DNA of 50,577 bases from an uncultured Clostridia bacterium. GTDB taxonomy: Bacteria > Bacillota > Clostridia > Christensenellales > CAG-917. Location: the NCBI GenBank assembly GCA_947383095.1, contig CANDBZ010000002.1:1-50577 (forward strand), in the 5' to 3' direction. A program made the translations under genes and the position numbers. How positions within the stretch are numbered: the stretch's first letter is position 1; the number at the start of each line of letters is the position of its first letter. Under the pieces are notes generated by a model that was not told where the DNA came from, did not search any database, and was given only the letters and a program-made list of their open reading frames with translations. Of the stretch, positions 3,801 through 39,406 are shown in pieces.

Positions 3801-5634
3801 CTGCGTCGTTTTCCGCCTCGGGATCTATCTCGCCGTTGGCAAGTCTCTCTGCGGTTTGCGCCCTGATTATCCTATCGCGCGATACGGCGGTCCTTTCGCG
3901 CGTTCTTCTGCCGCATTCGCGGAAGACGCCCGCCGCAATAACAAGCACGACTCCAACCGCGCCGAAGATACACAACCAATTTCTCAAACCGAGCACGTTC
4001 ATTACCGCCATAAGCAGATTGTTGGATTGCACCCAGGTCGCCTGCATATATCCGAGCATACCGTATTGCGCGTTCATTGGCGATATGCTGACCGCAAGAT
4101 TGTTGTTATCGTCCATACAGAGATTTATATTGAGCTTTGCGCCGCCGGTTGCAAACTGAATGAGCTCGCTCAAATCGTCCTGCAGCAAACCGCCCACAGA
4201 GTCGAGCAGACCTCCCAGCTTCGCAAGAATACCGTTGACCGCTTCCGCAAGCATATCGGGACTCAAATCGATTGTAATGTCGCCTATGTTCACACCCGCC
4301 AAAATTCCCGACAGCCACGTATAAAGATCGAAATTGACAAGATCCATGGGATCGCCCAGCATATCGAGGACGAGCCACTTCATAGGACGTTTTACTACGC
4401 CGTTTTCAAACACCATCCAACCGTCGTCGTTGATACCGTATCTGACGTCGACCTCTTTGCCGTCGCGGTTCATGAGCTTGCCCGTATAGGTATACTGTCC
4501 GCCGCTTTGCTCGAACGCCTTTTGCGCCTCGGGATCGCGGATCTCATAGAGGAAATTATTGTCCTCCGTATAATACACCTTGCCCGTCTCGTCCTGTACG
4601 CCCTGCGTATAAGACCATCCTTCGTTGAGAATAAGACGAAGCACCACAGGCACCGTCATGCGTCCGTTCATCTGCGCGTACAGTAGCAACGGATCGTCAA
4701 ACGTCTGATAACCGTCTTGATTGAAGTTGTCGTAGTTGTCGTCGAAAAGCTGCTTGATCTTTTTGTTTTTAAAGCCTTCCTTAAGCAGCGTTTCATATCC
4801 GCTGTGTGCGTACTCGTAATCGACAAGAGCTAGCGCAAACGCACGCCTGTCGACATTGTTTATCATGGCGTAGCTGAAATCGTTGAGCACGTAGGTTTTA
4901 TAAATAAACTGATACAGCTCGTATTTTCTCGGTTGCTTCTTTGCCATGGCGTCTATTATGTCCGCCTGAAGCTCCGCCATCGAATAATCTCTGACATACT
5001 CCGATACTCTCTGTTCGATCTCTTCGTTATCGTATTTGCCGTTTTGCTTGTCGCGCTTGGACAAGGTGGCGTACGAATAATCTCCGTTGGGCTTGCCGTC
5101 GTTGTTCAGGCTTCCGTTGAGGAGATTGTACATGATGAAATCTCTGTCAAGCTTCGCGTTTTTCTCCGCCTGCTCGGCGCCGTTATAATAAAGGTCCTCC
5201 GCAAACAAAGTGTTTTGCGTTGCAAAAGAGATCACGTCGGGCAGAATATAAGTCAACAACAGTGCGAAAACGGACGTCAGACAGACAAAGGTTATCGCCA
5301 CCTTTACCGTTTGACCGCCTATATTGCTCTTGCTGTTTTTTCTTGTCACAGCAAGCGTAACGCCCAGGAAAATCAAACCGAACACGCCCGCTATGATAAC
5401 GCCCACAAACGGCCAGAAGGTATAGTACGGCGCAAGCTGATAGCATTTTGCCGCCAACACGATGGTCACCGCCAAAATAGGCACAAACGCCAGAATGTGC
5501 AACAGTACCGCCACCAAAGTATAGCCGACCGACGTCTTGCTTTGGTCTTTTTTGGTGCGCTTGCTCACGGGAAACGCTTCCTCTATTATCTCGCCTTGCT
5601 TATCGAGATTGTAAATTTCTTTATTCTCTTTCAT
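3205..5634 (-). CDS. large multi-pass membrane protein with an extracytoplasmic domain and a repeated basic/acidic C-terminal tail. No family recognised.
   Basis: 809-aa ORF with GAGGAGG upstream. About 4 N-terminal hydrophobic helices, a ~400-aa hydrophilic domain and a late TM (WLCIFGAVGVVLVIAAGVF). The tail has 7 copies of a [KR]KR[DE]KK motif separated by acidic spacers. Confidence 0.85.
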   Translation of the reverse strand: MKENKEIYNLDKQGEIIEEAFPVSKRTKKDQSKTSVGYTLVAVLLHILAFVPILAVTIVLAAKCYQLAPYYTFWPFVGVIIAGVFGLIFLGVTLAVTRKNSKSNIGGQTVKVAITFVCLTSVFALLLTYILPDVISFATQNTLFAEDLYYNGAEQAEKNAKLDRDFIMYNLLNGSLNNDGKPNGDYSYATLSKRDKQNGKYDNEEIEQRVSEYVRDYSMAELQADIIDAMAKKQPRKYELYQFIYKTYVLNDFSYAMINNVDRRAFALALVDYEYAHSGYETLLKEGFKNKKIKQLFDDNYDNFNQDGYQTFDDPLLLYAQMNGRMTVPVVLRLILNEGWSYTQGVQDETGKVYYTEDNNFLYEIRDPEAQKAFEQSGGQYTYTGKLMNRDGKEVDVRYGINDDGWMVFENGVVKRPMKWLVLDMLGDPMDLVNFDLYTWLSGILAGVNIGDITIDLSPDMLAEAVNGILAKLGGLLDSVGGLLQDDLSELIQFATGGAKLNINLCMDDNNNLAVSISPMNAQYGMLGYMQATWVQSNNLLMAVMNVLGLRNWLCIFGAVGVVLVIAAGVFRECGRRTRERTAVSRDRIIRAQTAERLANGEIDPEAENDADIQADEEQAIEEKSRKKREKKRKETPQEFGEVTAEGKFAPIEESGEEEKGRRKRDKKQKNADDIAAAEVASDEAAVEEQKVWRKRDKKQKDEAADLEEVTADNAEEQETKGWHKRDKKQKSDDDAVEQASADEVAEEPKGWRKRDKKQKDEAADAEEVTADNAKAQETKGWRKRDKKKKDEDVAVPEEGTPGDTPSEV

Positions 5635-25199: not shown

Positions 25200-28100
25200 T
25201 TATTGATCGTTCTTCGTGAGCGTGACGTTTGCTGTGCCGTAGCCCGTGACGGTGTATTCTCCGACGGTAAACGTCGCGTCTTCTTGCCATATTACCGCGC
25301 CGCCGACGGTCAGCGTGCCGCCGTAGCTGTCGAGCGTATATATCGCAACGCTGCTCTTTGCATCGTTAAACCAAGCGAAATAGTACGTTTCGCCGTCTAT
25401 CGTTGCGGTGACGACCTCGGCATATTGTTCAAAGGGCGTTATCTCCGCTTTGAATATACCGTCCGTTTCCGTAAACACGATACGGTACGTTGCCGTGATA
25501 GGCGTTTCGCCCTTCTTCACTGTATACTCGAACGTCGCCGTCGCGCCGTCCGCCAAACTATCGATTTCCACCATAGCGAAAACGTTGTTATAGGTTGAAA
25601 TAAACAGCGTGCCGTATGCGTAATATATGTTGAACGACGGCGACGTGGACACGATTTTATCGCCGTCCTCCGCGCAGATGAACGTTGTTGAAGAAATGCT
25701 CATGCTCGTGCCGTAGCTTGTTTTAAATGTCTCAAACGGTCGTCCTTGGGACAATGCCATATACGTATCGCCCCACCTGTCGTAAACCATATATCCTCTG
25801 TATTTTTCAAGGTCCAACATGCCGTTCGTTTGAGTTTCGTTGCCCTCGACGGTAGTATTGAGCGCGCCCGTCGATATGTCAAACGTATACGTGCCGCTCT
25901 TGTATTCGCTGCCGTCAAAGTACAGCAAATTGCCCAAACCGTCAAACGCGACAAATCTGTTTGCACCCGCCGATACAAACCAGCCGCACGCCTCGGGCGC
26001 GGAAACACCCGCAAGCTTGAATTTGTTGTCAGGCAAAAGATACAACACTTTGATTTCGGCATCGCCATCATCTTTAGAAGCTATAAGCAAAATCGCACCC
26101 GATTGCTTGAAAACATAATATCTGAATTTGTCCGTTATCTCTCCATCAATCATTTCCGCCGTAAAATACCCGTCAAGCGTTATTTGAATACGCTCGTCAT
26201 CTTCAAACGTATACGTGCCTTCGCCGGATTTAGTAACTATTTTGAATTGGAGCATATTATCATAGCTGCCGGGTCCGAAATAGCCTCTCACCACATAGTC
26301 CTCCGACGTGGTGGAGTAATCCCACTTTCTTTCCATGCCGTTGAGATTGAAAATTATTTCGCTGAATTGCACACTGTAGCCGACAGTTATCTTTTCATCT
26401 TTATACTCCAGCGTGAGCTTGCCGCTGTAGGTTTTCTCGTCATTCCCCGAGCCGACGGTGTATTGCTTGCCATCGAGCGTAATTTTCGCCGCGTTGTCCA
26501 AGTCGTAATACACGCCCGCCTCTCCTCCGAGCGCAGTCATGACGTTTCCTTTATACGTCACGGTGGAGTTATCCGCGTCAAACGTAGCCGTCGCGCTTTC
26601 CATGCCTACGAGCTCGATCGTATTACCCGTCACACTGTACGTTCCTGTCGAAACGCTTCCTAATTCGCTGACAAACGTATATTTGCCAAAGCCGTCAAGC
26701 GTCAGTTTATCCGCGTCAAACGCGCCGTACGAGCCGGCTTCCGCTCCGCGTAAAATAAGCTTGCCGCCCGAAAACATGCCCTGCACGTCAAACTTATCGA
26801 TATATCCGCCGTCGGAGCTATCGACAAAACGCGTATAAATGCTTAATTTTTTTGGCGCGTTGCTTTCGGTATAACCGGGCAGGTTCATGCTGCTGTAATA
26901 CACGTATCCCAATCCCGTATAGCCGCTGTCCTCGCCGAACTCAATCAACGCGTATCCCGTATCCGTGCCCGTAAACTTTATAGCGCCGTAGGGCGTCGAC
27001 GCGCTGCCGCCCGCGGCGAAAGTCCCGTCCGTTTCCAGCTTTTTAAATTCGCCTTCGTATCCCATCTTGTAAGTTATGGGGTCGTTATTTCCGTCCATAG
27101 GCAAATTGTCTATGGTCGCGATGCTCGCGTTGAACGCCTCGACGAACGCGCTCGCGTTGACGTCGTCATAGGACGCGGTGCTCAACGGAGTGTAAATATA
27201 TGCGTATACGCCGAACTGCGACAACGAGTTGTACATAAACGTAGGGCAAACGCCGATCTGGCTCAATACGCAAAACGCCGCTTCTCCTATAGTCGGAGGC
27301 GTCGTGCCTCTGAAAACGACCTGCTGCAGATATGATTGATTGAGGAACGCTCCGCCGCCGATAGAACGTATTCCTGTGCCGAACTCGATCCCGAAGAGCT
27401 GTCCCATCGCAAATGCGTAGTCGCCGACGGACGCAACGCCGTCTCCCAATATAAGGAAACGGGTCGTTCCATTGTTTATGCACGCTCCGCTTGCAACGGC
27501 GGTTACGCCGTCGGGCACGCGATAAACCAGATCGCTGCCTTGATAATCATAAAGCGTATTATCGGAAACGGTCTCGCCCTTTTGATTTTTTGCAAGCATG
27601 GTAAGCGTCGACGCGGTATAATCTATAAGATAGGTATCGCGCACGCCGTCTTCGTCCTCGATATAAACGTGCGTATCCGCATACATCTCCGTCGTTGCGA
27701 CTTGAGCGAAATCGTATATCACCGCCGTCATGCTATAACCCCGATATAAAGTCAAGTCCCGCGAATCGTTTTTGAAAATGCCTTGCGTAACTTCGCTCTG
27801 ATCCATTTCCTCGTCGGAGAATGAATACGGATCCACCTCTTCAACCTGCAAAAACCGTCTCACGATTTGCATCGTTCCCGTTTCCGCGCCCGCCAACACG
27901 GCGTCCCACGCGCAGGCCCTCGCCACGATCTGTAACGCTTCGTCTCCTCGTACGCCGTTTCCGAAAACGTCGTTGCCCAAAGTCGGGAAAGCCGCGCCCG
28001 CAAAGCCTATTTCAAAAGTATCGAGGCTTTTAAACGCCTTGTCTCCGATCCTCGTCACCGTAGACGGTATTGCGAAAATAACGACCTTGGTATTTTCAAA

Positions 28101-28964
28101 CGCCTTTTCGCATATCTCCGTCGCGCCGCCGAGGTCTATTATCTTCACTTCGTTGTTGGCAAACGCGCTTGCTCCTATCTTGCCCGCAAACTCGGACATA
28201 TCTACGATCTCCACGTTTTCGTTGGATGCGAACGCGCTTGCTCCGATCTCTGTGACGGACGAAGGTATTTTTACCTCCGCCGCGTTGAGATATCTCATCG
28301 AGCCGATTTTCGTGACGGGCTTGCCGTCATAGCTCGACGGAATGACGACCTCCGTGGGATAGGAATATTTGCTTATCGCCGATATCTCCCACTCGCCGTT
28401 TGCGAGCTGCTTATACTGCCAGCCGTTTTTTATTATGTCGTCGTTGGGCTTATCCTGCCAGATCGCGACGGCGGTTATATTTTCCGTAAGACTCCACGCG
28501 GACAAGGACGCGCCGTCCTTATTTGTTATCGCGCTGCCTCCGTACGACCACCCGCCGAATATCTTATCCGCTTTCGTCGCCGTACCGAGATCGTATTGCG
28601 CGCCGAACGTCACTTGCTTCGTCGTCTGCGTAAGCGCGTCGCCGCCGTTGACGTCGAGCGTAACGGTAAATTTCTTTGCCGACCATTTTGCGACAAGCGA
28701 GATATTGCCGTTGACGGTCGAAGCAAAATCAAAGGTCGCGCCGTCCAAAAGCCATTCTTCAAAATCATATCCCGTCCTTTGCGGGTCCTGCGGCTTCTCA
28801 ACGGTTTTGCCCTTTACAACGGTTTTTTCAAACGACTGCACGCCCTCTCCGCTAAACGTTACCTTCACGTTTTCGGGCGGATCGTCGTTGCATGCGGCAA
28901 GCGTAAGGGCACACAACGCGACGATAAGTAAACAAACAATGAAAATCAAGCCTCTTTTTTTCAT
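25200..28964 (-). CDS. large surface lipoprotein with InlB B-repeats (Listeria-Bacteroides repeat) and BspA-type leucine-rich repeats
   Basis: Lipobox LTLAAC. There are two units of the form TGYxFxxW...G..FDF...V.....L.A.W, plus repeated IPSSVTEIGASAFA-type LRR_5 units. I set the start at the ATG (MKKRG), which has GAGGTG upstream. Confidence 0.85.
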   Translation of the reverse strand: MKKRGLIFIVCLLIVALCALTLAACNDDPPENVKVTFSGEGVQSFEKTVVKGKTVEKPQDPQRTGYDFEEWLLDGATFDFASTVNGNISLVAKWSAKKFTVTLDVNGGDALTQTTKQVTFGAQYDLGTATKADKIFGGWSYGGSAITNKDGASLSAWSLTENITAVAIWQDKPNDDIIKNGWQYKQLANGEWEISAISKYSYPTEVVIPSSYDGKPVTKIGSMRYLNAAEVKIPSSVTEIGASAFASNENVEIVDMSEFAGKIGASAFANNEVKIIDLGGATEICEKAFENTKVVIFAIPSTVTRIGDKAFKSLDTFEIGFAGAAFPTLGNDVFGNGVRGDEALQIVARACAWDAVLAGAETGTMQIVRRFLQVEEVDPYSFSDEEMDQSEVTQGIFKNDSRDLTLYRGYSMTAVIYDFAQVATTEMYADTHVYIEDEDGVRDTYLIDYTASTLTMLAKNQKGETVSDNTLYDYQGSDLVYRVPDGVTAVASGACINNGTTRFLILGDGVASVGDYAFAMGQLFGIEFGTGIRSIGGGAFLNQSYLQQVVFRGTTPPTIGEAAFCVLSQIGVCPTFMYNSLSQFGVYAYIYTPLSTASYDDVNASAFVEAFNASIATIDNLPMDGNNDPITYKMGYEGEFKKLETDGTFAAGGSASTPYGAIKFTGTDTGYALIEFGEDSGYTGLGYVYYSSMNLPGYTESNAPKKLSIYTRFVDSSDGGYIDKFDVQGMFSGGKLILRGAEAGSYGAFDADKLTLDGFGKYTFVSELGSVSTGTYSVTGNTIELVGMESATATFDADNSTVTYKGNVMTALGGEAGVYYDLDNAAKITLDGKQYTVGSGNDEKTYSGKLTLEYKDEKITVGYSVQFSEIIFNLNGMERKWDYSTTSEDYVVRGYFGPGSYDNMLQFKIVTKSGEGTYTFEDDERIQITLDGYFTAEMIDGEITDKFRYYVFKQSGAILLIASKDDGDAEIKVLYLLPDNKFKLAGVSAPEACGWFVSAGANRFVAFDGLGNLLYFDGSEYKSGTYTFDISTGALNTTVEGNETQTNGMLDLEKYRGYMVYDRWGDTYMALSQGRPFETFKTSYGTSMSISSTTFICAEDGDKIVSTSPSFNIYYAYGTLFISTYNNVFAMVEIDSLADGATATFEYTVKKGETPITATYRIVFTETDGIFKAEITPFEQYAEVVTATIDGETYYFAWFNDAKSSVAIYTLDSYGGTLTVGGAVIWQEDATFTVGEYTVTGYGTANVTLTKNDQ

Positions 28965-29261
28965 AAACACCTCGACAAATTATAACTTTTACGAGTCAAA
29001 GCTTCTTTCGTTTTTCTCTTATAATGAATATAAGATTTATAAATATAATATATCACATATTATGATTTGTCAATTTGCCCGCCGTGTATGAATAATTATA
29101 AAATTTTGCCAATAAATATGAATAAGCTTTGACCCTGAAACATGCAAGATAATGCAGATTTGCAAATTCCGTTTCTTTAATTCTCGTTTGATCAATAATT
29201 TATGTATACGGTTCATAATACGCGTATAGCGGAGAGACCGTCCTTATGCGCGAAAATATAT

Positions 29262-30393: not shown

Positions 30394-30812
30394 AATAAAA
30401 TATCGCATAAACAACGATTAGTTTTATAAGTTTCTAATTGTATATTTGTTTTAGTTAACGCCGCCAACCGCCCCTGTTTTAAGACGTTGTTTCGCAAAAT
30501 AACGAGACAATGTTGACAAGCAAGTTGCATTTTCAAAAGAAAAGCACAATGCACTGCATTTTTCATTATCAATAGTTTAAAATGACAAGCATAAAAGCAG
30601 GGAGCTATGAGAAAAACCGCGTGGCATAGTCCGCTTTTTATAGAAAAAATACCTCGCGTAAAAGCCGATGTCTAAAAGCGCGGAACGCGCCAACCAAACA
30701 AAAGATTATGCGAAACGAATTTCGAGGCGTGCATCTTTGATTGTTATGCTAGCTATAATCTTTTGCGCGGAGTGACGAGAAAACGCGCTTGCATAGGTCA
30801 CGCTTTTTTAAA

Positions 30813-30838
30813 TGAAAAAGCGCACCCGGCGATGCGCG
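30813..30838 (-). terminator. intrinsic terminator after the tRNA-like element
   Basis: The minus strand reads gcgca-tcgccggg-tgcgc followed by ttttt. Confidence 0.55.
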
Positions 30839-30845
30839 TTTTCGA

Positions 30846-30990
30846 GTAGCGCCTGTTGAGGGACTTGAACCCCCGTGTAATAGCAGCGTTGCGTGAGCTT
30901 GCTCACTCTTGCAACCTGCGCCCACTTCGGTAGAAGTGTCGGCAGGCATAGCCTGCGCCGCATTGCGGCTTGGGGTACAGTCCCTCTCGT
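30846..30990 (-). ncRNA. tRNA-like structured element. Its 3' end is an exact copy of the tRNA-Asn T-arm plus 3' acceptor strand, and its 5' two-thirds are unrelated GC-rich hairpins.
   Basis: 30849-30875 is identical to 31024-31050 (27 nt). Nested hairpins are visible (GCCGC-AAU-GCGGC, GCAGGC-UAU-GCCUGC, CACUUC-UACC-GAAGUG, GUUGC..GUGAGC-AA-GCUCAC..GCAAC). Terminator-like hairpins bracket it on both sides. Confidence 0.45.
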
Positions 30991-30992
30991 AC

Positions 30993-31018
30993 AAAAAAAA
31001 GCACACCTTCGTGTGCTT
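30993..31018 (-). terminator. hairpin plus U-run between tRNA-Asn and the tRNA-like element
   Basis: The minus strand reads gcacac-gaag-gtgtgc followed by tttttttt. Confidence 0.6.
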
Positions 31019-31021
31019 CTC

Positions 31022-31097
31022 TGGCGCCTGTTGAGGGACTTGAACCCCCGACACTTCGGTTAACAGCCGAATGCTCTACCGACTGAGCTAAACAGGC
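31022..31097 (-). tRNA. tRNA-Asn (anticodon GTT), CCA encoded
   Basis: The hand-folded cloverleaf has acceptor GCCUGUU/AACAGGC, D arm GCUC-AGUCGGUA-GAGC, anticodon loop CUGUUAA and T arm GGGGG-UUCAAGU-CCCUC. Length is 76 nt. Confidence 0.92.
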
Positions 31098-31185
31098 ACT
31101 CATTTATAATGCTTGATTATAATAATATTTTATGCGGATTTTGTCAAGAAGTTTTTGCTGATTGCTCTTTTCTTTTTGCTTTGTA

Positions 31186-31740
31186 TTATCGCCCGCTTCT
31201 CATCACCTTGCATCTCGCAAATTTTGAGACGCACAGCTTGTCGATATCCGTTTGACATGTCAAACGCTCACTCAAAAGCTCTCCCGCCTCTTTATCAAGA
31301 TTTGCTATACCGAAAACGACAAGACACTTCAGGTCCTCGTCTGTACTGCCGAAAAAACATGCGCATGCTCTGTCTTTCGCCTTCTTCGATAGTTTTTGTA
31401 TCCTGCGGCAGCGAAGCTCGTCGCATATAAGATGGGACATAATCTTATCGTCTATCCTGTAATAAATACAGTTTTTATTTTCGTTCTTATATTGCGCTAT
31501 AAGCCCGTCAAGCGACTGCCCGTCCGACAGCTCGATTTCATTTTCCTCATCAAAGCAATCGTCTTGCGCAATGCTCAATATGCACTCCAAAAACATTCTG
31601 TCGCCTTCGCTTTGAAGCTGATATTTGTAAATCACGTAAGTCCCGTCCGGAGAGGCGTTACAACCTATCTCCGCAAACGCGTCGGCCAATATAAGTTTAA
31701 TGTGCTGTTCGTTTAGCAACATACAATAAAGATTTTTCAT
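31186..31740 (-). CDS. hypothetical 184-aa Cys-rich cytoplasmic protein (last gene of the 4-gene cassette)
   Basis: AGAGGGA SD, 13 Cys, no signal peptide or TM, no recognisable motif. Confidence 0.7.
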   Translation of the reverse strand: MKNLYCMLLNEQHIKLILADAFAEIGCNASPDGTYVIYKYQLQSEGDRMFLECILSIAQDDCFDEENEIELSDGQSLDGLIAQYKNENKNCIYYRIDDKIMSHLICDELRCRRIQKLSKKAKDRACACFFGSTDEDLKCLVVFGIANLDKEAGELLSERLTCQTDIDKLCVSKFARCKVMRSGR

Positions 31741-31782
31741 TTTTCCCTCTTTTTCTCACTTCTAATCGGGCGATTTTTCCGT

Positions 31783-32658
31783 CTATTTATTTTCTCTTCC
31801 AAACGCCTCGATATATGCTTTTTCAAGTTGTCTTTTATCTGCTGGAATGTTCTTCCCAAAAGGGCTTTGAACGCAAGCTTTAAGCAAATCGTCGATATTT
31901 GCCTTTATGTCTTCAACGACCCATTTCGCCTCTCCGCCGAGATATAACGGACCCGTCGTCACAAAATATTTAAACCGCAACTCAACGTCTCTCGACCCGT
32001 CCGTACGCGTTATCCCGCAAAGATTGAAATACTTATTGTCTAATTTATGCGCGACTTTCAAAAACAGGACATCGTCCGTCCGCATATCTATAGCAAACAT
32101 GTAGCCGTTGTCGTACGCCAACAAAAAATACTCGTTCAATCTGTCGACGGCAATGCCTGTGAGCGTATCTCCGGATACTTTATATTTGAATATGTTTTTG
32201 ACTACTCTACCGCTCTTTGCGCTTATCAACGACAGTCCGCCCGAGGACGACGACCACTCGCAAAAAATTTTGTCTTGATATACAAACACTTTAGTCAATC
32301 TGTTTATGGGGCTTTTCCACAACACTTCGTTTGTGCATAAATCGACGCACTTCGTTTCATTCCTTAAGTACGACGGCACTATGGCGTATTTGTCGAGCAG
32401 TATGCTTATACCCTTTTTCGCTTCGCAAAGAGCGAGCGCCTCTATATTTGTAAGTTGTATGCTTCCCGCAATCTTGCCGTACGCATCGTAAAAGTCGCAT
32501 TTTGCAAGCTCGTTCATACGCGCGCCGCTTTCTTTGCTGAACATTGGATTGACAAACTCGCACTCGCATCTTAAAAACCGCGATGAATCAAACGACTCGT
32601 ATATCGCTTCAAAATTGCCTATCTCCCTGCTTCTTTCAAAATCCGACTTAAAAATCAT
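31783..32658 (-). CDS. hypothetical 291-aa protein, paralog of the 32675-33550 product
   Basis: Alignable blocks against its neighbour: TNEVLWKSP vs TNKLLWSWP, CEWSSSSGGLSL vs TEWCFTGRGGLTV, VDRLNEYFLLAYDNGYMFAIDMRTD vs INRLNEQFMFIYSEGGVFLLDMHTD, and EKAYIEAFG vs ERAYKKLFG. Confidence 0.75.
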   Translation of the reverse strand: MIFKSDFERSREIGNFEAIYESFDSSRFLRCECEFVNPMFSKESGARMNELAKCDFYDAYGKIAGSIQLTNIEALALCEAKKGISILLDKYAIVPSYLRNETKCVDLCTNEVLWKSPINRLTKVFVYQDKIFCEWSSSSGGLSLISAKSGRVVKNIFKYKVSGDTLTGIAVDRLNEYFLLAYDNGYMFAIDMRTDDVLFLKVAHKLDNKYFNLCGITRTDGSRDVELRFKYFVTTGPLYLGGEAKWVVEDIKANIDDLLKACVQSPFGKNIPADKRQLEKAYIEAFGRENK

Positions 32659-32674
32659 ACGCTTTTTTTAAAAT

Positions 32675-33550
32675 TTACGCCTCCGCGCCGAACAACTTTT
32701 TATATGCTCTTTCCACTCCTACTATAGTTGTTGGAATTCTTATTCCTAAAGGACTTTCTTTAATTTCATCAATTATTTCTTTTATCGGCACGGTTATCTC
32801 TTTTTTCTCCCATCCCAACGGGTCTGTTGAATACACGCGAACATATCCCTTGTTAACAAATGTGAACGTTAAATTCCCGTCGTTGTTTTCAACATTCGTT
32901 AAAACTACAAACTCCGCGTCTTGAGTCATAAATTCGCGGAAAAGTTTTTTAGACATATATAGTTTATCCGTATGCATGTCAAGCAAAAACACACCGCCTT
33001 CCGAATATATAAACATAAATTGCTCATTCAATCTGTTTATATAAGGATGATGCATTTTTGTATTGTAGGTCATTACCTGCCGCAGTATCTCGCCGGTTTC
33101 CAAATCAAATACGGTCAGTCCTCCCCTACCTGTAAAACACCATTCCGTGTAAACGTCTTTACCTCTGACATAAACATAATAAAACTCATTTGCGGGCCAG
33201 GACCACAACAGTTTGTTAGTCTTTATCTCAAAACATGCTGCTGCGCCTTTATATGCGCCGGGAAAAATCAAATGCTTTCCGTTTTCCGCTACAGCAATAG
33301 GTTTTTCCCATGCAAAACAACTCCACGCCTCCGAGTTTGGAAGCATAAGACGACTCACTTCGTTATCGTCGTCATCGTATAATCTACACTCCGCAATTAT
33401 GCCCTTATTTGTGAAATATTTGCAGTCGCATACGCTTTTTCTTATTTTTTCCGACTCATATTTTTCATATGTTGTAATAACGCGCCCCTCTTCCTGCCGC
33501 GGTAAGCCTCCACTTATCAATGATTTATCTATATTTGATTGCGCTTTCAT
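32675..33550 (-). CDS. hypothetical 291-aa protein, paralog of the 31783-32658 product
   Basis: AGGGGAAA SD, identical length and shared blocks with its neighbour. The strand-rich repeat pattern hints at a beta-propeller-like fold, which is inference only. Confidence 0.75.
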   Translation of the reverse strand: MKAQSNIDKSLISGGLPRQEEGRVITTYEKYESEKIRKSVCDCKYFTNKGIIAECRLYDDDDNEVSRLMLPNSEAWSCFAWEKPIAVAENGKHLIFPGAYKGAAACFEIKTNKLLWSWPANEFYYVYVRGKDVYTEWCFTGRGGLTVFDLETGEILRQVMTYNTKMHHPYINRLNEQFMFIYSEGGVFLLDMHTDKLYMSKKLFREFMTQDAEFVVLTNVENNDGNLTFTFVNKGYVRVYSTDPLGWEKKEITVPIKEIIDEIKESPLGIRIPTTIVGVERAYKKLFGAEA

Positions 33551-33561
33551 TTATTTTTCCC

Positions 33562-34311
33562 CTACATTGTCTCGAGGTCTAAAATCTTCTTCTTTTTGCC
33601 GCAATTTGCGCACTCGAGCTTTATTGTTATCCAATCAAATGCGTCTCTCCAATTCTCTTCCGTCACGACGTCCGTGCCGTCGCCGACGTTGTCGCAAAGC
33701 AGCTGCTCCTTGCCTATATTTGAAAACGTCAAAAATATTTTGTATCCCGCATCCTTGCAATGTTCTCTTTTTGTCTTCATATTCCCGTCCGCCGCATATT
33801 GCTTATCCGGTTCGTCAAAATGATTGCACATGCCGTCGTACCCGTGACATCTGCTGTCAAACAGCACAATTTCTTTGCCGCACTTTTTACACTTTGCAAC
33901 AAGATATTCATAAATCGTGGGGCTGTCGTCGTCTTCCATGAAAAAATGTCCTATATAGTTTTTATCCTTTATTGCCTCCTCAAGCGAGCCGTAATCTTTA
34001 CCCAACTCGCCAATAACATACATCCAGCAGTTTTTACCAAGCTCGCCGCCGCCCGTCCAAAGACACATATACTTTATCTCGTTTTCCTCGGTATAATTTT
34101 TAAAAGGTCCTATTCTTTTATCTCTCATCTCCTCGGCTTTTTTCTCTATTTCAGCCATCTTTTCCATAAAAGGATAACTGCGCTTGAAGTATATATATCT
34201 ATACTTAAAAACATCGCTTCCGCAATCGCAAATTATTTCGCACGTTTCTGTTTCACCTTTGACGGATACCGTGCGCGCATTATTTTTTATATATTTTGGA
34301 ATTATCGACAT
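33562..34311 (-). CDS. hypothetical 249-aa protein with paired CxxC motifs (zinc-ribbon-like)
   Basis: AGGTGG SD. Cys motifs are C-x3-C-x-C (CEIICDC), CKKCGKE, CHGYDGMC and CANCGKK. Confidence 0.75.
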   Translation of the reverse strand: MSIIPKYIKNNARTVSVKGETETCEIICDCGSDVFKYRYIYFKRSYPFMEKMAEIEKKAEEMRDKRIGPFKNYTEENEIKYMCLWTGGGELGKNCWMYVIGELGKDYGSLEEAIKDKNYIGHFFMEDDDSPTIYEYLVAKCKKCGKEIVLFDSRCHGYDGMCNHFDEPDKQYAADGNMKTKREHCKDAGYKIFLTFSNIGKEQLLCDNVGDGTDVVTEENWRDAFDWITIKLECANCGKKKKILDLETM

Positions 34312-34458
34312 ATTGCCACCTGCTTTTCATTTGTAGTAATATAGCTGTTATATTTAAATTTTATAGTTATTTTTATAAAAAGTAAATATGCTTTCTTGCT
34401 TTTTTTGCTCAAAGAATTTATATTTAATAAATAAGAAAACATGGTATTTTAAAAAGCT

Positions 34459-35487
34459 ATGGCAGAAGTTTTACTCGATTCGTTTATAGACAGCCTTAAA
34501 ATTCTTGCGGTCGTTGCGGTATGCACTTATATAGTTGCCGCAATAGAGCCGTTTTTGGCAAAGAAAATAAGGCTGCACGGCAAACTCGCTCCGCTTATAG
34601 GGGTGAGCGTTGCCCTTTTGCCTCAATGCGGTTTTTCTGTTGTCGCAGCCGACCTATATCAAAAGCGTCATTTAACTATCGGCACTCTTATAGGCGTTTT
34701 TATAGCGACTTCCGACGAAGCGTTGCCAATCTTCTTGAGCTATCCAGAAAAAGCTCTGCACGTGTTGCCTTTAATCGCTTTAAAATTCGCAATAGGTTTA
34801 GTTCTCGGCTACTCTATAGATTTGATATTGACGAAAAGCAGGCGCGCCGTCGCTCATCATTTGGAGCATTGCGCTGACGATTATCAAATAAAGCTCATGC
34901 ATTGCGACAGCGCGGAGCTTGTCGTAAAAGAACAACTTTCCTCTCCCTGCAACTGCGATGAATGCGCCCATTCCGATTGCCCTCATATAAAGGACGAATT
35001 TTCAAAACCGCAAAAATACGGTATTCTATACGATTATTCGGTTTTGTTTGATAAAAAAAGAGACAAACGCAAAAAAATAGACAGATTTTTTATACGTCCT
35101 TTGCTTCACTCTCTTGAAATATTTATTTACGTCCTTATCGTCAATATAATTTTCGGCATTATTATTTATTATATCGGCGAAGATAAAATAATAGATTTTC
35201 TTCTTTTAAACAAATATATAGCGCCGTTGATATCCGTTCTGATCGGAGCCGTGCCAAACTGCGTTTCTTCAATTGTATTGAGCGAGCTTTATATTATGGG
35301 AGGGCTTGGCTTCGGGGCCGCGCTTGGCGGTCTTTGCATGAACGCGGGACTTGGATTTATGATACTTTTCAAAAACGCAAAGCATTTAAAACGAAATATT
35401 TTGATATTTTTATCAATGCTTTTTATAAGCGTTTGCATTTCTTATATCTTCTCCGCAATATTCTCCTTCGGCAGTTTGAATATATAA
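34459..35487 (+). CDS. polytopic membrane protein, putative metal-ion permease (ArsP_2-like 10-TM family)
   Basis: The 342-aa product has an LPQCGFS motif in TM2. A central cytoplasmic loop is rich in His and Cys (HHLEHCADD...HCD...CNCDECAHSDCPH). The two membrane halves are repeated. Confidence 0.6.
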   Translation: MAEVLLDSFIDSLKILAVVAVCTYIVAAIEPFLAKKIRLHGKLAPLIGVSVALLPQCGFSVVAADLYQKRHLTIGTLIGVFIATSDEALPIFLSYPEKALHVLPLIALKFAIGLVLGYSIDLILTKSRRAVAHHLEHCADDYQIKLMHCDSAELVVKEQLSSPCNCDECAHSDCPHIKDEFSKPQKYGILYDYSVLFDKKRDKRKKIDRFFIRPLLHSLEIFIYVLIVNIIFGIIIYYIGEDKIIDFLLLNKYIAPLISVLIGAVPNCVSSIVLSELYIMGGLGFGAALGGLCMNAGLGFMILFKNAKHLKRNILIFLSMLFISVCISYIFSAIFSFGSLNI

Positions 35488-35499
35488 AGGAAGCGCGTC

Positions 35500-35508
35500 T
35501 GTGGACAA
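35500..35508. promoter_or_regulatory. DnaA box, 8/9 match (TGTGGACAA vs TGTGGATAA)
   Basis: Direct read upstream of dnaN. Confidence 0.5.
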
Positions 35509-35550
35509 CGCAAAACACATGTTTATCTTTTGTTGAAAACAAGCACGGGG

Positions 35551-35559
35551 TTATCCACA
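35551..35559. promoter_or_regulatory. DnaA box, perfect TTATCCACA
   Basis: Direct read 149 nt upstream of the dnaN ATG. I found no other perfect box by eye. Confidence 0.65.
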
Positions 35560-35707
35560 CCGCTTTTTTGATATAAATCTATATATTGATATTTTGTCGA
35601 AGTAGCAGCACTATCGATAGATTTATTGTGTTTTTTTCCACTTGTCAACATGGCTTATTTATGTTATCATTATTAAAAATAAATATAATAAATATCAGGT
35701 GAAGAAA

Positions 35708-36808
35708 ATGAAGGTTTTATGTCAGGGAAAAGAGTTGAGCGACGCTCTCTCGAAAGTTGTAAAGGCATTGCCTCAAAAGAGAAATAATCCTATACTCGAA
35801 GGCGTTAAATTGTCCGCATACGGCGATACACTCACACTCTTCGCAACAGATCTCGAGCTTGCTATAGAAAAGAAAATAAACGCGCAGGTCTTGATAGAAG
35901 GAGAAATCGTAGTTCCGGGCAAGCTGTTTGCCGACTATGCTAAAAAGATAGAAGAAGAACAGGTTGAATTGGACGGGACGACGATAACCAAGCTCGTCAT
36001 AAGATATCTTGAAAGCGAGCTTCAAATGAAAAGCCTGACAAGCGACGAATATCCGCTCTTTCAGGAGATAAACGCGGACAACTCTTTCACGATACTCAAG
36101 AAGGACTTTAAGGAAATCATAAACAAAGTGTTGCTTGCCGTGAGCGTCGACGACAGCAGGCCTGCTTTGAGAGGCGTTTGTCTCAATATAAAAGACGAAG
36201 AGGTCGAAGCCGTTGCAACTGACGGATACCGTCTCGGCTCCGCAAAGGCGTTGATCAAGAAAAACGGTATCGTCGGAAAGCTTGTCGTGCCGTCGAAGAG
36301 TATCACGGAGATAAGCAGACTTATAGACGACAGCGACGAGACGGTTACGGTGTTTGTAGAAAAGCATTATATCATGGTGGATCTTTTCCATACGAAAATC
36401 GTCACGCGTCTCATCAGCGAGGAGTTTTTAAATTACTCGAAGGTCATTCCGACTTCTTTCGAGACGACAGTTACGGTAGATAAGCAGGTTTTTGAAAAAG
36501 CGATCGATCGCGCTTCCCTTATCAACAGAAACGAGCGCAATTCTATCGTAAAGATCGATGTAAAAGAAAAGGAAATACTTCTCAATGCGCGCAGCGAGGA
36601 CGGCGAAATAAACGAGCGTATAACCGCAGGCATAAACGGAAAGGATATCACGATTGGTTTTACGGTCAAATATATTAGCGAATGCTTGCGCGCCATCGAC
36701 GATCCGTTTATAACGCTCAACTTCAACACATCCACTTCTCCATGCATTATAAACAGCGAAAACGGAAATTGGCTTTATCTGATTTTGCCGATCAGGGTCA
36801 TAGGTTAA
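35708..36808 (+). CDS. dnaN: DNA polymerase III beta subunit (sliding clamp)
   Basis: MKVLCQGKELSDALSKVVKALPQKRNNPILEGVKL...TDLELAIE is typical of DnaN. I set the start at the Met with AGGTGAAG upstream. The ORF track opens at 35642. Confidence 0.95.
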   Translation: MKVLCQGKELSDALSKVVKALPQKRNNPILEGVKLSAYGDTLTLFATDLELAIEKKINAQVLIEGEIVVPGKLFADYAKKIEEEQVELDGTTITKLVIRYLESELQMKSLTSDEYPLFQEINADNSFTILKKDFKEIINKVLLAVSVDDSRPALRGVCLNIKDEEVEAVATDGYRLGSAKALIKKNGIVGKLVVPSKSITEISRLIDDSDETVTVFVEKHYIMVDLFHTKIVTRLISEEFLNYSKVIPTSFETTVTVDKQVFEKAIDRASLINRNERNSIVKIDVKEKEILLNARSEDGEINERITAGINGKDITIGFTVKYISECLRAIDDPFITLNFNTSTSPCIINSENGNWLYLILPIRVIG

Positions 36809-36810
36809 AA

Positions 36811-36842
36811 AAAGCCGCTCATCGGGAGCGGCTTTAATTTTT
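36811..36842. terminator. bidirectional terminator between convergent dnaN and dnaA
   Basis: aaagccgctc-atcg-ggagcggcttt flanked by A and T runs. Confidence 0.75.
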
Positions 36843-38210
36843 TTATCTGTTTAAAAGCATGTTTTTTATGTCTGCTACGGTTATCTTTATACGCGTGTTG
36901 GTTTTGATCTCATCGGTTATTTTATCGCGCGCATGGATAATAGTAGTATGATCTCTGCCGCCGAAAATCTCACCTATTTGAGCGAGAGGCATCGGGAGTA
37001 AATCCGTGATGAGATAAATTGCGATCATCCTCGGCTCCACAAGATTTTTTGTCTTTTTCTTTGAAAACAAATCATCCGTAGAGATTTTATAGAATTTGCA
37101 GACAGCGCCAATAATATCGCTTGCGTCGATCGCTCCGTCTTTATCCTCGATAAAATCGCTCAACGCTTCCGCGGCGAGCTCTCGCGTGTTTATGACATTG
37201 TTTGTAAGAGAACTGAAAAACACGATTTTGTTTAACAAACCTTCCATTTCTCGTATATTAGAAGTTGCGTTTTCCGCGATATAATCGGCAACCTCGTCCG
37301 ATAGCTGAAATTTTGCCTGCGCCGCTTTATTTTTCAAGATAGCGACTCTCGTTTCCATATCCGGCGGCTGTATGTCTACAGTCAATCCCCAGCTGAAGCG
37401 AGTGCGCAATCTATCCTCGAGTGTGGTCAGTTCTTTTGGAGAGCGGTCGGAGGTGATTATAATCTGTTTATTTGTTTGATATAAATCGTTGAATATATGG
37501 AAAAATGCTTCCTGCGTTGCGTCTTTTCCTATCAAAAATTGAATATCGTCGATCATAAGAACGTCGCAGGATCGATATTTTTCTCTGAATTTATTGTTTT
37601 CTTCGTTCGATTTTGTTCTTATGACCGAAATAAGCTCCGTGACAAGCGTTTCCGCGCTGACATAAAGAACGCTCAAATTACTTCTATCCTTGCAAATAAG
37701 ATTACCTATTGCGTGAAGCAAGTGGGTCTTGCCGAGTCCTACTCCCGAATATATAAACAGCGGATTGTATTTTTGACCCGGAGTGTCCGCGACCGTCTTG
37801 CATGCAGCCAAAGCATAGGCGTTGGACTTGCCCTCGATAAAAGTGTCGAACGTATATTTGTCGAGAAAGGGCGATTTTGTTTTTTGAGTGTCGGCCATCG
37901 GCCTTTTTTCAGATTGAGGAGAAACAAGAGAATCCGTCTGTTTGTTTATATATTCTTCCTTTTGAGAAGGGAGAATGACCAACACGTCCGTTATAGACGA
38001 ATTTAAAGACGAAACGACTTCTTTTATAATTTCCAGATATTTGTGATCGATAGTTCTTTTGGCGCTTGCTGCAACGGTAGATAAAACAATCGTGTTATCG
38101 ACAAAACAAACAGGCTCGAGTGCTTCTATCCAAACCTCGTAGTATATAGCCTGTATCGATTTTGAAAGCTCGTATTTGGCGTCCGACCAAAATTTTTCTA
38201 TGTTTATCAT
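36843..38210 (-). CDS. dnaA: chromosomal replication initiator protein DnaA
   Basis: Walker A GVGLGKTHLLHAIGN, DDIQFLIGKDATQEAFFHIFN and the C-terminal DNA-binding HTTIIHARDKI. I set the start at MINIEKFWSD. The 36-codon upstream extension looks like translated AT-rich spacer. Confidence 0.93.
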   Translation of the reverse strand: MINIEKFWSDAKYELSKSIQAIYYEVWIEALEPVCFVDNTIVLSTVAASAKRTIDHKYLEIIKEVVSSLNSSITDVLVILPSQKEEYINKQTDSLVSPQSEKRPMADTQKTKSPFLDKYTFDTFIEGKSNAYALAACKTVADTPGQKYNPLFIYSGVGLGKTHLLHAIGNLICKDRSNLSVLYVSAETLVTELISVIRTKSNEENNKFREKYRSCDVLMIDDIQFLIGKDATQEAFFHIFNDLYQTNKQIIITSDRSPKELTTLEDRLRTRFSWGLTVDIQPPDMETRVAILKNKAAQAKFQLSDEVADYIAENATSNIREMEGLLNKIVFFSSLTNNVINTRELAAEALSDFIEDKDGAIDASDIIGAVCKFYKISTDDLFSKKKTKNLVEPRMIAIYLITDLLPMPLAQIGEIFGGRDHTTIIHARDKITDEIKTNTRIKITVADIKNMLLNR

Positions 38211-38216
38211 AATTGA

Positions 38217-38244
38217 ATTATAGCAAAAACAAGGAATAAAACAA
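38217..38244 (-). promoter_or_regulatory. candidate dnaA promoter with its -10 box ending 6 nt before the ATG
   Basis: The minus strand reads TTGTTT, a 16-nt spacer, TATAAT, then tcaatt-ATG. There is no SD. Confidence 0.35.
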
Positions 38245-38317
38245 GCAAAAATCCGAAAATAAAAAACAAAAGCATTATGTTGAAAAAAAATCGAGGTTAA
38301 TATATACTTATTGTGCA

Positions 38318-39406
38318 ATGAAAATCATCTCGCTGGAGCTAAATAATTTCAGAAACTATAAGCACGCGTTTGCGGAGTTTGACGACGGGCTTAACGTTTT
38401 ATATGGAAAAAACGCAAGCGGAAAGACAAATATGATTGAAAGTATTTATTTATGCTCTATTTTTCACAGCCCGCGCACAACCAAAGATAAAGAGATGGTT
38501 TTGATCGGAGAAGCAAAGGCAAATATAAATCTTATTTTGCAAAAGAAATACAGAAAGCACAGTATAAATTTGCAAATAGACGAAAAAGGCAAAAAGAAAA
38601 TATTGGTTGACAATATTCCTCTTAACAGAGCCGGCGAATTGTTTGGAGTACTCGGCGTGGTTTATTTCTCACCCGACGAAATGAAGCTTGTAAAAGAGTC
38701 GCCGCAAGAAAGACGCAGATTTATGGACGTCGGGTTGAGTCAACAGCAGCGAAGCTATTTTTATGCGTTGCAGCGGTATAACAAAACGCTCAAGCAAAAA
38801 AACAATCTTTTAAAGGAATGGAGAAATAATAAAAATATAGATTCTATGCTCGACGTGTGGGATATGGGGCTCGCAAAGGAAGGCGCGGAGATAATTTTCA
38901 AAAGGATAGAATACGTCAAGGTGTTGAACGACGCGGCAAGCAAATTTCATACCGCGATGAGCGAAGCAAAAGAAGAGTTGAGATTGACGTATGAATGCGC
39001 CGCTGATATTTCTGATAAAAACGAGCTCAAGCAATCATTATATGAAGAGATAGTAAAAACGCGAGCAAAAGACAAGGAATTGGGATACTGCACGGTGGGT
39101 CCTCACAGAGACGATATAAAAATAGAGATAAACGGAAAGGACAGCAGAAAATTTGCTTCTCAAGGACAGCAGAGAACTATCGCGCTTGCACTTAAGCTCG
39201 GCGAAGTTATAATATACAAAAACGAAATAGGCGAACCGCCCGTACTTTTGCTTGACGACGTATTGAGCGAGCTCGATATGCAAAGACAAAAGCTTTTGCT
39301 TGAGATGACGGCAGGGTTTCAAACTATACTGACCTGTACAGAGTTTGATATGAATGAAAAAGCAAACAAAATACAAATAAGCGACGGCGCCGTTATTCCA
39401 GGATAA
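38318..39406 (+). CDS. recF: DNA replication and repair protein RecF
   Basis: MKIISLELNNFRNYKHA, Walker A GKNASGKTN, and the C-terminal signature and Walker B regions (SQGQQRT, LLLDDVLSELD). Confidence 0.93.
   Translation: MKIISLELNNFRNYKHAFAEFDDGLNVLYGKNASGKTNMIESIYLCSIFHSPRTTKDKEMVLIGEAKANINLILQKKYRKHSINLQIDEKGKKKILVDNIPLNRAGELFGVLGVVYFSPDEMKLVKESPQERRRFMDVGLSQQQRSYFYALQRYNKTLKQKNNLLKEWRNNKNIDSMLDVWDMGLAKEGAEIIFKRIEYVKVLNDAASKFHTAMSEAKEELRLTYECAADISDKNELKQSLYEEIVKTRAKDKELGYCTVGPHRDDIKIEINGKDSRKFASQGQQRTIALALKLGEVIIYKNEIGEPPVLLLDDVLSELDMQRQKLLLEMTAGFQTILTCTEFDMNEKANKIQISDGAVIPG

Follow-up and report, generated by a model that had tools for sequence, protein, structure and literature searches.

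Cis-mobilizable elements (CIMEs) are flanked by att sites, lack recombination genes and can accrete in tandem at tRNA sites; both the elements and their accretion are reportedly described in the literature on ICESt1/3 of Streptococcus thermophilus. Bacterial noncoding RNAs (ncRNAs) that resemble tRNAs or derive from them include tmRNA, the Y-RNA-like YrlA and tRNA-spacer RNAs of the 3'ETS-leuZ type, and the attC sites of integrons have variable centres. Islands integrated in tRNA genes are bounded by displaced tRNA 3' fragments (attL/attR), according to the work on Islander (PMC4383910), the attB site of phage Ms6 lies in the T-loop (PMC1762012), and single-strand origins of the ssoA type combine an RSB motif, TTATGCCGAGAAAATTT, with the CS-6 motif TAGCGT in a long hairpin (PMC4598088). 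Here, we analysed a structured element downstream of the tRNA-Asn gene on contig CANDBZ010000002.1 (assembly GCA_947383095.1) of an uncultured Clostridia bacterium; the analysed stretch of 50,577 nucleotides is called the window below. Our analysis indicates that the element is very probably one partly decayed copy of a clade-wide module, which is located directly behind tRNA-Asn and on the same strand in uncultured gut Clostridia. The module is a real, conserved and tRNA-derived structured module. No description of it was found in the literature searched, and Rfam 15 was negative.

Results

The element in the window

The sole tRNA of the window according to ARAGORN and Rfam is tRNA-Asn(GTT), encoded on the minus strand (31097..31022). 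A preliminary description of this stretch had noted that its 3' end recurs further downstream; the identity is indeed exact, and the 27-mer GCGCCTGTTGAGGGACTTGAACCCCCG stands at both 30849-30875 and 31024-31050 and nowhere else in the window; 100 shuffles gave no match. The distal copy starts 147 nt downstream of the copy within tRNA-Asn, the 147 nt between the repeats hold no open reading frame (ORF) of note, and after the repeat the tRNA reads on with CA and the distal copy with UA (TA in DNA). Downstream of tRNA-Asn, terminator T1 is followed by a GC-rich multi-hairpin stretch, the 27-nt copy and terminator T2. The features of the locus in the direction of the tRNA are:

31119..31147, minus strand: sigma-70-like promoter of tRNA-Asn, TTGACA-17 nt-TATTAT, 11 of 12 consensus positions
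31022..31097, minus strand: tRNA-Asn(GTT) with encoded CCA (ARAGORN; Rfam RF00005, 72 bits)
30993..31016, minus strand: terminator T1, hairpin GCACAC-GAAG-GUGUGC (31016..31001) followed by U8 (31000..30993), read from the sequence and folded
30972..30988, minus strand: 5' arm (IR-L) GAGAGGGACUGUACCCC, a degenerate inverted copy of the tRNA T-arm region that pairs with the T-arm copy (inverted repeat I23, minimum free energy (MFE) fold)
30957..30969, minus strand: hairpin H1, GCCGC-AAU-GCGGC (MFE fold)
30942..30956, minus strand: hairpin H2, GCAGGC-UAU-GCCUGC (MFE fold)
30917..30941, minus strand: core CGA-CACUUC-UACC-GAAGUG-GGCGC (junction bases and hairpin H3), three differences from the family consensus CGACACTTCTTCCGAAGTGGACGCT
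30883..30919, minus strand: long hairpin H4, at the position of the tRNA variable loop (MFE fold)
30867..30979, minus strand: match to covariance model R1 (family-1 core, closing helix P1 to T-stem 5' strand), 90.8 bits, E = 2.8e-23
30849..30875, minus strand: exact 27-nt copy of the tRNA 3' end (C48, T-arm, 3' acceptor strand, G73, C74), exact repeat
30810..30837, minus strand: terminator T2, GCGCAUCGCCGGGUGCGC and U-run (hairpin 30837..30820), from the terminator scan and by orthology to relative locus L027

The GC-rich stretch folds with an MFE of -69 kcal/mol (z = -5.6 vs shuffles). As initially described, neither a D arm nor an anticodon arm is found in the element between tRNA-Asn and T2. 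An inverted-repeat search together with the MFE fold yields a closing helix, GAGGGACUGUACCCC paired to the T-arm copy, around four hairpins; the 5' arm scores 11 against its own 3' arm in Smith-Waterman alignment (shuffles 5.4). Apart from the 27-mer, tRNA and element have a second stretch in common and in the same order, the 9-mer ACCGAAGTG, and the 3' half of H3 in the window equals the tRNA's ACCGAAGUG. An alternative pairing of GCCUGCC with the acceptor 3' strand, proposed earlier as a competitor of H2, is not kept in relatives, where H2 changes freely in sequence, and judging from this variation it is probably a coincidence.

The hairpins with U-runs previously noted on both sides of the element correspond to T1 and T2, which are mutually unrelated. 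T1 was identified by reading and folding the sequence, as the consensus terminator scan did not list it, and its family is also present behind tRNA-Asn in the relative loci L012, L054, L014 and L008. The distal 27-nt copy together with T2 aligns closely with the genuine tRNA 3' end and terminator of L027. The orthology of the distal copy and T2, along with the kinship of T1, points to insertion or reshuffling between tRNA tails and not to a simple fresh tandem duplication.

R1 matches the window exactly once, and the copy shows wear: the acceptor-complementary part of the 5' arm is lost, the H3 loop reads UACC, the core carries three changes, CCA has become CUA and the score of 90.8 bits compares with up to 130.7 bits for the best units of the family. 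Metagenome contigs of the same population that span the element are all 100% identical there, and the runs containing the window region are mouse-gut metagenomes.

No known family claims the element. Rfam searches at gathering thresholds and at E <= 10 with the window element, a canonical unit (L033) and family 2 (described below) returned only the tRNA. With default settings, with introns of 0-200 nt allowed and in tmRNA mode alike, ARAGORN made no call on the element; only a relaxed threshold gave pseudo-calls, which were inconsistent. Its tmRNA mode was likewise negative for the window and for the units of relatives, and no Rfam tmRNA model matched.

A module family in related Clostridia

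For comparison, 44 loci (L-numbers denote retrieved relative loci) from related uncultured Clostridia with a DnaN identity of 61-75% were retrieved, including metagenome-assembled genomes (MAGs) assigned to 'Christensenella sp.' and CAG:238/475. The anchor was dnaN, since a neighbouring 184-aa protein has no homologue but itself among 5.8 billion proteins. In 29 of the 44 loci, tRNA-Asn is found near dnaN. Exact second or third copies of the tRNA tail are present downstream of tRNA-Asn in L012, L013, L022 and L031, and a copy with one mismatch in L054; they recur 178-238 nt downstream, each with the T-loop variant of its own species (TTCAAGT, TTCGAGT or TCCGAGT). Many further copies are marked by the conserved core CGACACTTCTTCCGAAnTGGACGC, and a search with this core added 30 metagenome loci. 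The covariance model R1, built from 27 units, detects 69 copies in 75 sources, all related uncultured gut Clostridia. A weak match in L032 (20343-20457) lies in coding sequence and was discarded as a false positive.

Wherever tRNA-Asn is seen beside an array, the units are located downstream of it and on its strand, in arrays of one to three, and all readable contexts follow the order p1076 ... tRNA-Asn ... ArsP2-dnaN-dnaA. The region upstream of tRNA-Asn, on its promoter side, is also kept in relatives, and an intrinsic terminator on the tRNA strand follows each unit. Within arrays, neighbouring units are divergent; the R1 score drops with distance from the tRNA, so that the tRNA-proximal unit is the best preserved and distal units decay. 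The 24-nt core is identical or nearly so across species whose DnaN proteins are 61-75% identical, while flanks and terminators are unalignable, a pattern that points to selection.

A tRNA with terminator and without a unit is found in L048 and in the right-hand part of L008; these are distant species, and L008 is perhaps a chimeric assembly. As far as the tRNA T-loop, L008 matches the window with 99.5% identity; beyond this point only 70-76% are identical, and tRNA-Asn stands directly upstream of ArsP2. It was probably joined inside the shared tRNA; if so, its right-hand part would represent a related species without a unit.

The tRNA-Asn gene and its array lie in plus orientation relative to ArsP2-dnaN-dnaA in L014, L015, L022, L027, L033, L034 and L054 and in minus orientation in the window and at least 13 other loci. 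These flips between related species indicate repeated small inversions at the locus.

Two further kinds of insert were noticed at the same place. Acceptor-only mini-units of about 33 nt, e.g. GCGCGTGTTGAGCGTCCCGATACAAGCGCGCCA, consist of an inverted and a direct remnant of the tRNA tail with their own terminator and no interior; they sit between tRNA-Asn and the units in L017, L018, L023, L025, L026, L029, L030, L036 and L013, and the ending GCGCGCCA matches the attR junction of the island described below. Rabbit-gut MAGs (L032, L037, L041, L042) have another structured insert at this site downstream of tRNA-Asn; it measures about 170 nt, is unrelated to the first and is called family 2 here. 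Its closing helix of 10 bp, GAGGGACTCG/CGAGTCCCTC, consists of an inverted and a direct copy of the 3' half of the T-arm, and the insert also has a long covarying hairpin; no Rfam family matches it.

Anatomy and covariation of the unit

On the tRNA strand, the order of a unit is terminator with T-run, 5' arm, H1, H2, CGA, H3, GAC, H4, GCTAyTwCA, then T-arm, 3' acceptor strand, G and CCA, and again a terminator, with an invariant core that can be written CGA-CACUUCUUCCGAAGUG-GAC. A five-way junction is predicted, with the 5' arm and the T-arm copy as its closing helix; H4 is missing in L056. In its ideal form, GCCTGTTGAGGGACTCGGACCCCC, the 5' arm repeats the tRNA 3' end in inverted orientation; actual arms are variously degenerate. 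H3 reads CACTTC-TTCC-GAAGTG in the family, and its 3' half, CCGAAGTG, is shared with the tRNA, where it is the 3' strand of the anticodon stem. In L054, the tRNA reads CCGAAGCG and the units do the same, accompanied by a compensating CGCTTC, i.e. an A-U pair of H3 has become G-C in step with the variant of its own tRNA. We conclude that the module derives from the tRNA because its 5' arm inverts the tRNA 3' end and its H3 re-uses ACCGAAGTG, which together with the 27-mer stands within the element in the tRNA's order.

The hairpins are strongly conserved and covary across relatives. In a plain MAFFT alignment, 85% of the cells are paired compared to 34-47% in slid controls, and 23 pairs show double changes vs 12.4 +/- 1.9 in shuffles. 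The model-fitted alignment, which leans toward the structure of the model, gives 87.8% paired cells (36-53% in slid controls), double changes in 29 of 37 pairs (17.3 +/- 1.8 in shuffles; reached by 0 of 500) and a covariation score of 0.287 vs 0.097, likewise reached by none of 500 shuffles. The covarying pairs comprise 7/7 in H1, 5/5 in H2 and 5/5 in inner H4, and the outer H4 helix covaries too; the closing helix P1, H3 and the junction bases are nearly invariant. A pairing UUCCG/CGGGG suggested by RNAalifold from the plain alignment has no covariation support and was rejected. The combination of a near-invariant core and dozens of compensatory changes amid unalignable spacers argues against neutral decay.

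The 3' end of the units occurs in three forms, namely a canonical tRNA tail as in the window, a tail with an insertion of about 45 nt and a decayed tail of equal length. Always kept are the closing ACCCC/GGGGU helix and the core; the tRNA-like end is not. For units cut after GGGGGTYC, we considered a crossover in the T-loop and rejected it, as a position-by-position comparison revealed copies of an equal-length decayed tRNA tail plus terminator.

The tRNA tail as an integration site in relatives

Ten loci have no tRNA in front of the array; in its place stands a sequence ending in TATCCAAAGGCGC joined to GCCA, followed by a terminator. This is the junction of an island, which in relatives reads TCCAAAGGCGC joined to GCCA and then T1. 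The DNA upstream of the junction is 93-98% identical between hosts with differing units, indicating that the module tracks the host lineage and not the island. The island gene on the junction side encodes a protein of about 510 aa with Resolvase, Recombinase and Zn_ribbon_recom domains, and its reading frame crosses the att junction into host sequence; the island also encodes an AAA_21/RloB (AbiL-like) gene pair and a Rep_ORF2-G2P rolling-circle Rep gene. Its other end directly follows GCGCCA in L019, L023, L045 and L052, loci which were taken for empty sites until they turned out to be occupied by the left end of the island. On contig OYYI01000044, the island end follows a unit tail, and the island lies between two identical units. 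The mobile island exceeds 10 kb and sits at the tRNA-Asn tail or at the copy of this tail in a unit in different host species, with its ends located as follows:

Right end: L020, L060, L061, L064, L065, L067, L072, L080, L081, L083, L084
Left end: L019, L023, L045, L052, L070

The same att site is unoccupied in sister genomes. According to these junctions, the tRNA tail or the copy in a unit, together with the start of the next terminator, constitutes attB. This use as attB is established for relatives; the window's own two sites have different terminator flanks. The island DNA does not contain the unit, and the island inserted separately and later. A tblastn search of the window for the serine recombinase of the relatives found no homologue, the other ORFs of the window not being screened for tyrosine recombinases.

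Genomic surroundings of the locus

Upstream of the tRNA, at 31186-34311 on the minus strand, the window encodes four low-GC genes (184, 291, 291 and 249 aa) with no significant match in Pfam, PHROGs or PADLOC and only weak sub-threshold ones; relatives carry other genes, or none, at this position. The element had been placed at the edge of a low-GC cassette, which does not hold: GC is low on both sides, from about 29 to 42 kb, and the low-GC stretch includes the replication-origin region (34300-38400). Here, the cumulative GC skew has its minimum at about 35 kb, DnaA boxes are found at 35500-35559 between ArsP2 and dnaN, and dnaN (plus strand) and dnaA (minus strand) point towards each other, which is unusual and is kept across the clade. 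A protein of 1256 aa with BspA-type leucine-rich repeats and a Listeria-Bacteroides repeat domain (25200-28970, minus strand) adjoins the locus, and homologues stand beside tRNA-Asn in L027 and L054. A conserved segment of about 90 nt at ~30700-30790 of the window has 11-bp inverted ends, CAAAAGATTAT ... ATAATCTTTTG; relative to the unit, it faces the other way in L027 (~4190-4265). An inverton is not supported as explanation, since the inversion extends past these ends by 7 nt or more of flank.

Discussion

Does the module act as RNA or as DNA? Our best reading, to which we assign a probability of roughly 45%, is a tRNA-derived structured transcript made by read-through. According to this model, the unit would be transcribed by read-through of T1 from the strong tRNA-Asn promoter, transcription would end at the unit's own terminator and the transcript would fold into the closed five-way junction. 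The invariant H3 and the junction bases would then form a binding site for a partner, which might be a protein or tRNA-Asn itself. The 5' arm and the 5' strand of H3 would be antisense to the 3' half of the tRNA. Only the tRNA-proximal unit would be kept intact, and distal units would decay. Every unit is co-oriented with the tRNA although the block of tRNA and array is inverted relative to dnaN in many species; this co-orientation, the terminators after the units, the invariant unpaired junction bases and the preservation of the tRNA-proximal unit tentatively favour RNA.

Several observations weigh against a read-through transcript. No promoter is found between T1 and the unit, and T1 looks strong, with a 6-bp GC-rich stem and U8. 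The window element was matched in no RNA run. In metatranscriptome contigs over the units of a relative, depth stays flat at 3-10 over genes, spacers and units alike and no RNA species stands out as abundant; this looks like DNA background, and 'RNA' contigs from rat and mouse were uninformative. The pairs of H1, H2 and inner H4 comprise 660 Watson-Crick, 3 G.U and 9 A.C combinations; such a scarcity of G.U is not decisive, however, because control terminator hairpins from the same loci show the same pattern (194 Watson-Crick, 3 G.U, 4 A.C), and the strand test of G.U vs A.C was dropped as an argument against RNA after this control. The tRNA-like 3' end decays in many units, so processing of a tRNA-type end cannot be essential, and an island is commonly found between tRNA and array, so expression by read-through cannot be essential either. 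Finally, family 2 has an unrelated interior, the same terminal design and the same site in other species, and a DNA insertion mechanism fits this at least as well.

The small RNA derived from or mimicking tRNA, which was one of two possibilities raised in the preliminary description, is upheld with respect to the missing known family and to the conserved and covarying hairpins, and is burdened by the terminator in front and the lack of a promoter of its own. With the known tRNA-derived ncRNAs, the unit shares tRNA parts (T-arm, acceptor, CCA), a position beside the tRNA on the same strand and a strong structure. In contrast to these RNAs, it stands after and not before the tRNA terminator, matches no Rfam family and lacks an rsr or smpB context, and its T-arm copy pairs with the 5' arm and forms no T-arm in the conserved fold.

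The strongest competitor of the read-through transcript, a serious one although we regard it as less probable, is a cassette at the DNA level: a non-autonomous, att-flanked mini-element consisting of unit and terminator and akin to a CIME or an integron cassette, stacked at the 3' end of tRNA-Asn by a recombinase acting in trans, whose inverted arms and hairpins would act in DNA, as a folded single strand or in protein binding, and not as RNA. Such a cassette would account for the insertion topology, i.e. mutually unrelated terminators T1 and T2 and a distal copy which, together with T2 and apart from the change of CCA to CTA, is orthologous to the tRNA end and terminator of L027. It would also account for two families that fill the same design of inverted T-arm, interior and direct tail with unrelated interiors, for divergent neighbours in arrays whose best-preserved unit adjoins the tRNA, and for the acceptor-only mini-units. 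The site is moreover a proven recombination hot spot where the tRNA block is inverted in many species, the stems are nearly pure Watson-Crick and the unit stands behind a terminator. However, the only recombinase beside the arrays is that of the serine-recombinase island, a separate and later insertion without the unit, and the units follow the host lineage and not this island. Three pattern scans of viral_contigs and blastn searches against phages and plasmids returned 0 matches to the unit, so that a phage or plasmid attP origin was also rejected, and all readable loci represent one chromosomal context. A circle of about 175 bp would be an unlikely substrate for recombination, the suspected T-loop junctions are equal-length decayed copies and not crossovers, and the central core is invariant, unlike the variable centres of attC sites.

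Compared to described DNA elements, the locus shares with islands in tRNA genes (PMC4383910) an intact tRNA accompanied by a second, direct copy of its 3' end, with the distal copy next to the ancestral terminator; it also has in common with them that the same tRNA tail is a live integration site in relatives. It differs in having only 147 nt between the repeats, with no integrase and no cargo, and in an interior that is conserved, covarying and common to many species and is not island DNA; moreover, the island of the relatives uses a serine and not a tyrosine recombinase and makes no long repeat. The other earlier proposal, a remnant of an att-type duplication with its interior deleted, stands as regards the insertion topology, the orthology to L027 and the live integration sites, and fails as regards the interior, which is no random remnant of a deletion but discrete, with the same boundaries, covarying helices and an invariant core in many species.

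The likeness to CIMEs lies in att-like flanking repeats, the lack of a recombinase, tandem arrays and an island in tandem with units; the module is about tenfold smaller, however, and no autonomous element carrying the unit was found in viral, phage or plasmid records. Neither an autonomous relative nor dispersed copies, as would mark a CIME or a miniature inverted-repeat transposable element, were found, and the readable metagenome contexts are all tRNA-Asn/dnaN. Like the attC arrays of integrons, including CALINs, and like ssoA, the units keep structure over sequence and have imperfect inverted ends, and they are organised in arrays. Opposite to attC, the GTTRRRY-like box of a unit comes before the RYYYAAC-like one (GTTGAGG ... 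CCTCAAC); moreover, the centre does not vary and no ORFs lie between units; box order, centre and ORFs thus do not fit attC, while IntI was not searched for. A CS-6-like TAGCG(T/A) occurs on the opposite strand at the base of H4 in many relatives (TAGCAG in the window). A single-strand origin of the ssoA type was nevertheless rejected, because this hexamer is the only likeness, no RSB-like TTATGCCGAGAAAATTT is present and the orientation relative to oriC is not kept. A role in single-stranded DNA linked to replication was also rejected, as the orientation relative to dnaN and oriC flips and the DnaA boxes lie elsewhere, at 35500-35559.

Still less probable is a functionless relic of an old duplication or integration at the tRNA tail, whose similarity to the tRNA would be kept by gene conversion and whose palindromes would be kept by hairpin-templated repair. 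The degraded state of the window copy (90.8 vs up to 130.7 bits, loss of the acceptor-complementary 5' arm, CCA changed to CTA, three core changes), the clear decay of distal array units, the equal rarity of G.U and A.C mismatches and the lack of visible expression (no RNA run with the window element, flat depth in the relative) would all fit such a relic. A leftover of this kind is difficult to reconcile with what is kept across species, a 24-nt core that hardly varies and five helices in which compensatory changes number in the dozens, or with the 100% identity of the window element in all spanning contigs of its population.

An unusual tRNA or tmRNA gene, be it intron-containing, long-armed or permuted, is highly improbable: the T-arm and acceptor 3' strand are tRNA-like, most relatives have CCA and some units keep a GCCUGUU able to pair with the acceptor 3' strand, but ARAGORN (default, intron 0-200 nt, tmRNA) and the tRNA and tmRNA models of Rfam are negative, H3 has a 4-nt loop where a tRNA has a 7-nt anticodon loop, and the 5' strand of the T-stem is taken up by the conserved closing helix.

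Taken over both the RNA and the DNA view, it is possible, though the chance appears somewhat less than even, that the units constitute a previously undescribed class of tRNA-derived structured nucleic acid, either a stable RNA acting on the 3' half of tRNA-Asn by pairing or resembling it by mimicry, or a folded-DNA cassette. In both cases the units would be organised in arrays behind a single tRNA gene next to the replication origin, with at least two unrelated interiors on one design of inverted and direct tail copies and with each copy doubling as attB for serine-recombinase islands. Repeats of the tail create several alternative attB sites, as directly shown by the island between two identical units. 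For programs that search for islands and prophages, this means that a direct repeat of a tRNA 3' end 175 bp from the gene is not necessarily the scar of an island. If the module acts as a DNA cassette, it would show that a site-specific unit directed at a tRNA tail can be very small, and it would be an example of cassette-like stacking in a Gram-positive lineage. If it acts as RNA, it would represent a new class of tRNA-derived structured RNAs of about 120-150 nt with a five-way junction and an invariant core, for which a covariance model is ready. Its carriers are abundant uncultured gut Clostridia, and the finding would raise the question of the role that a molecule both antisense to the 3' half of tRNA-Asn and mimicking it may play in these bacteria.

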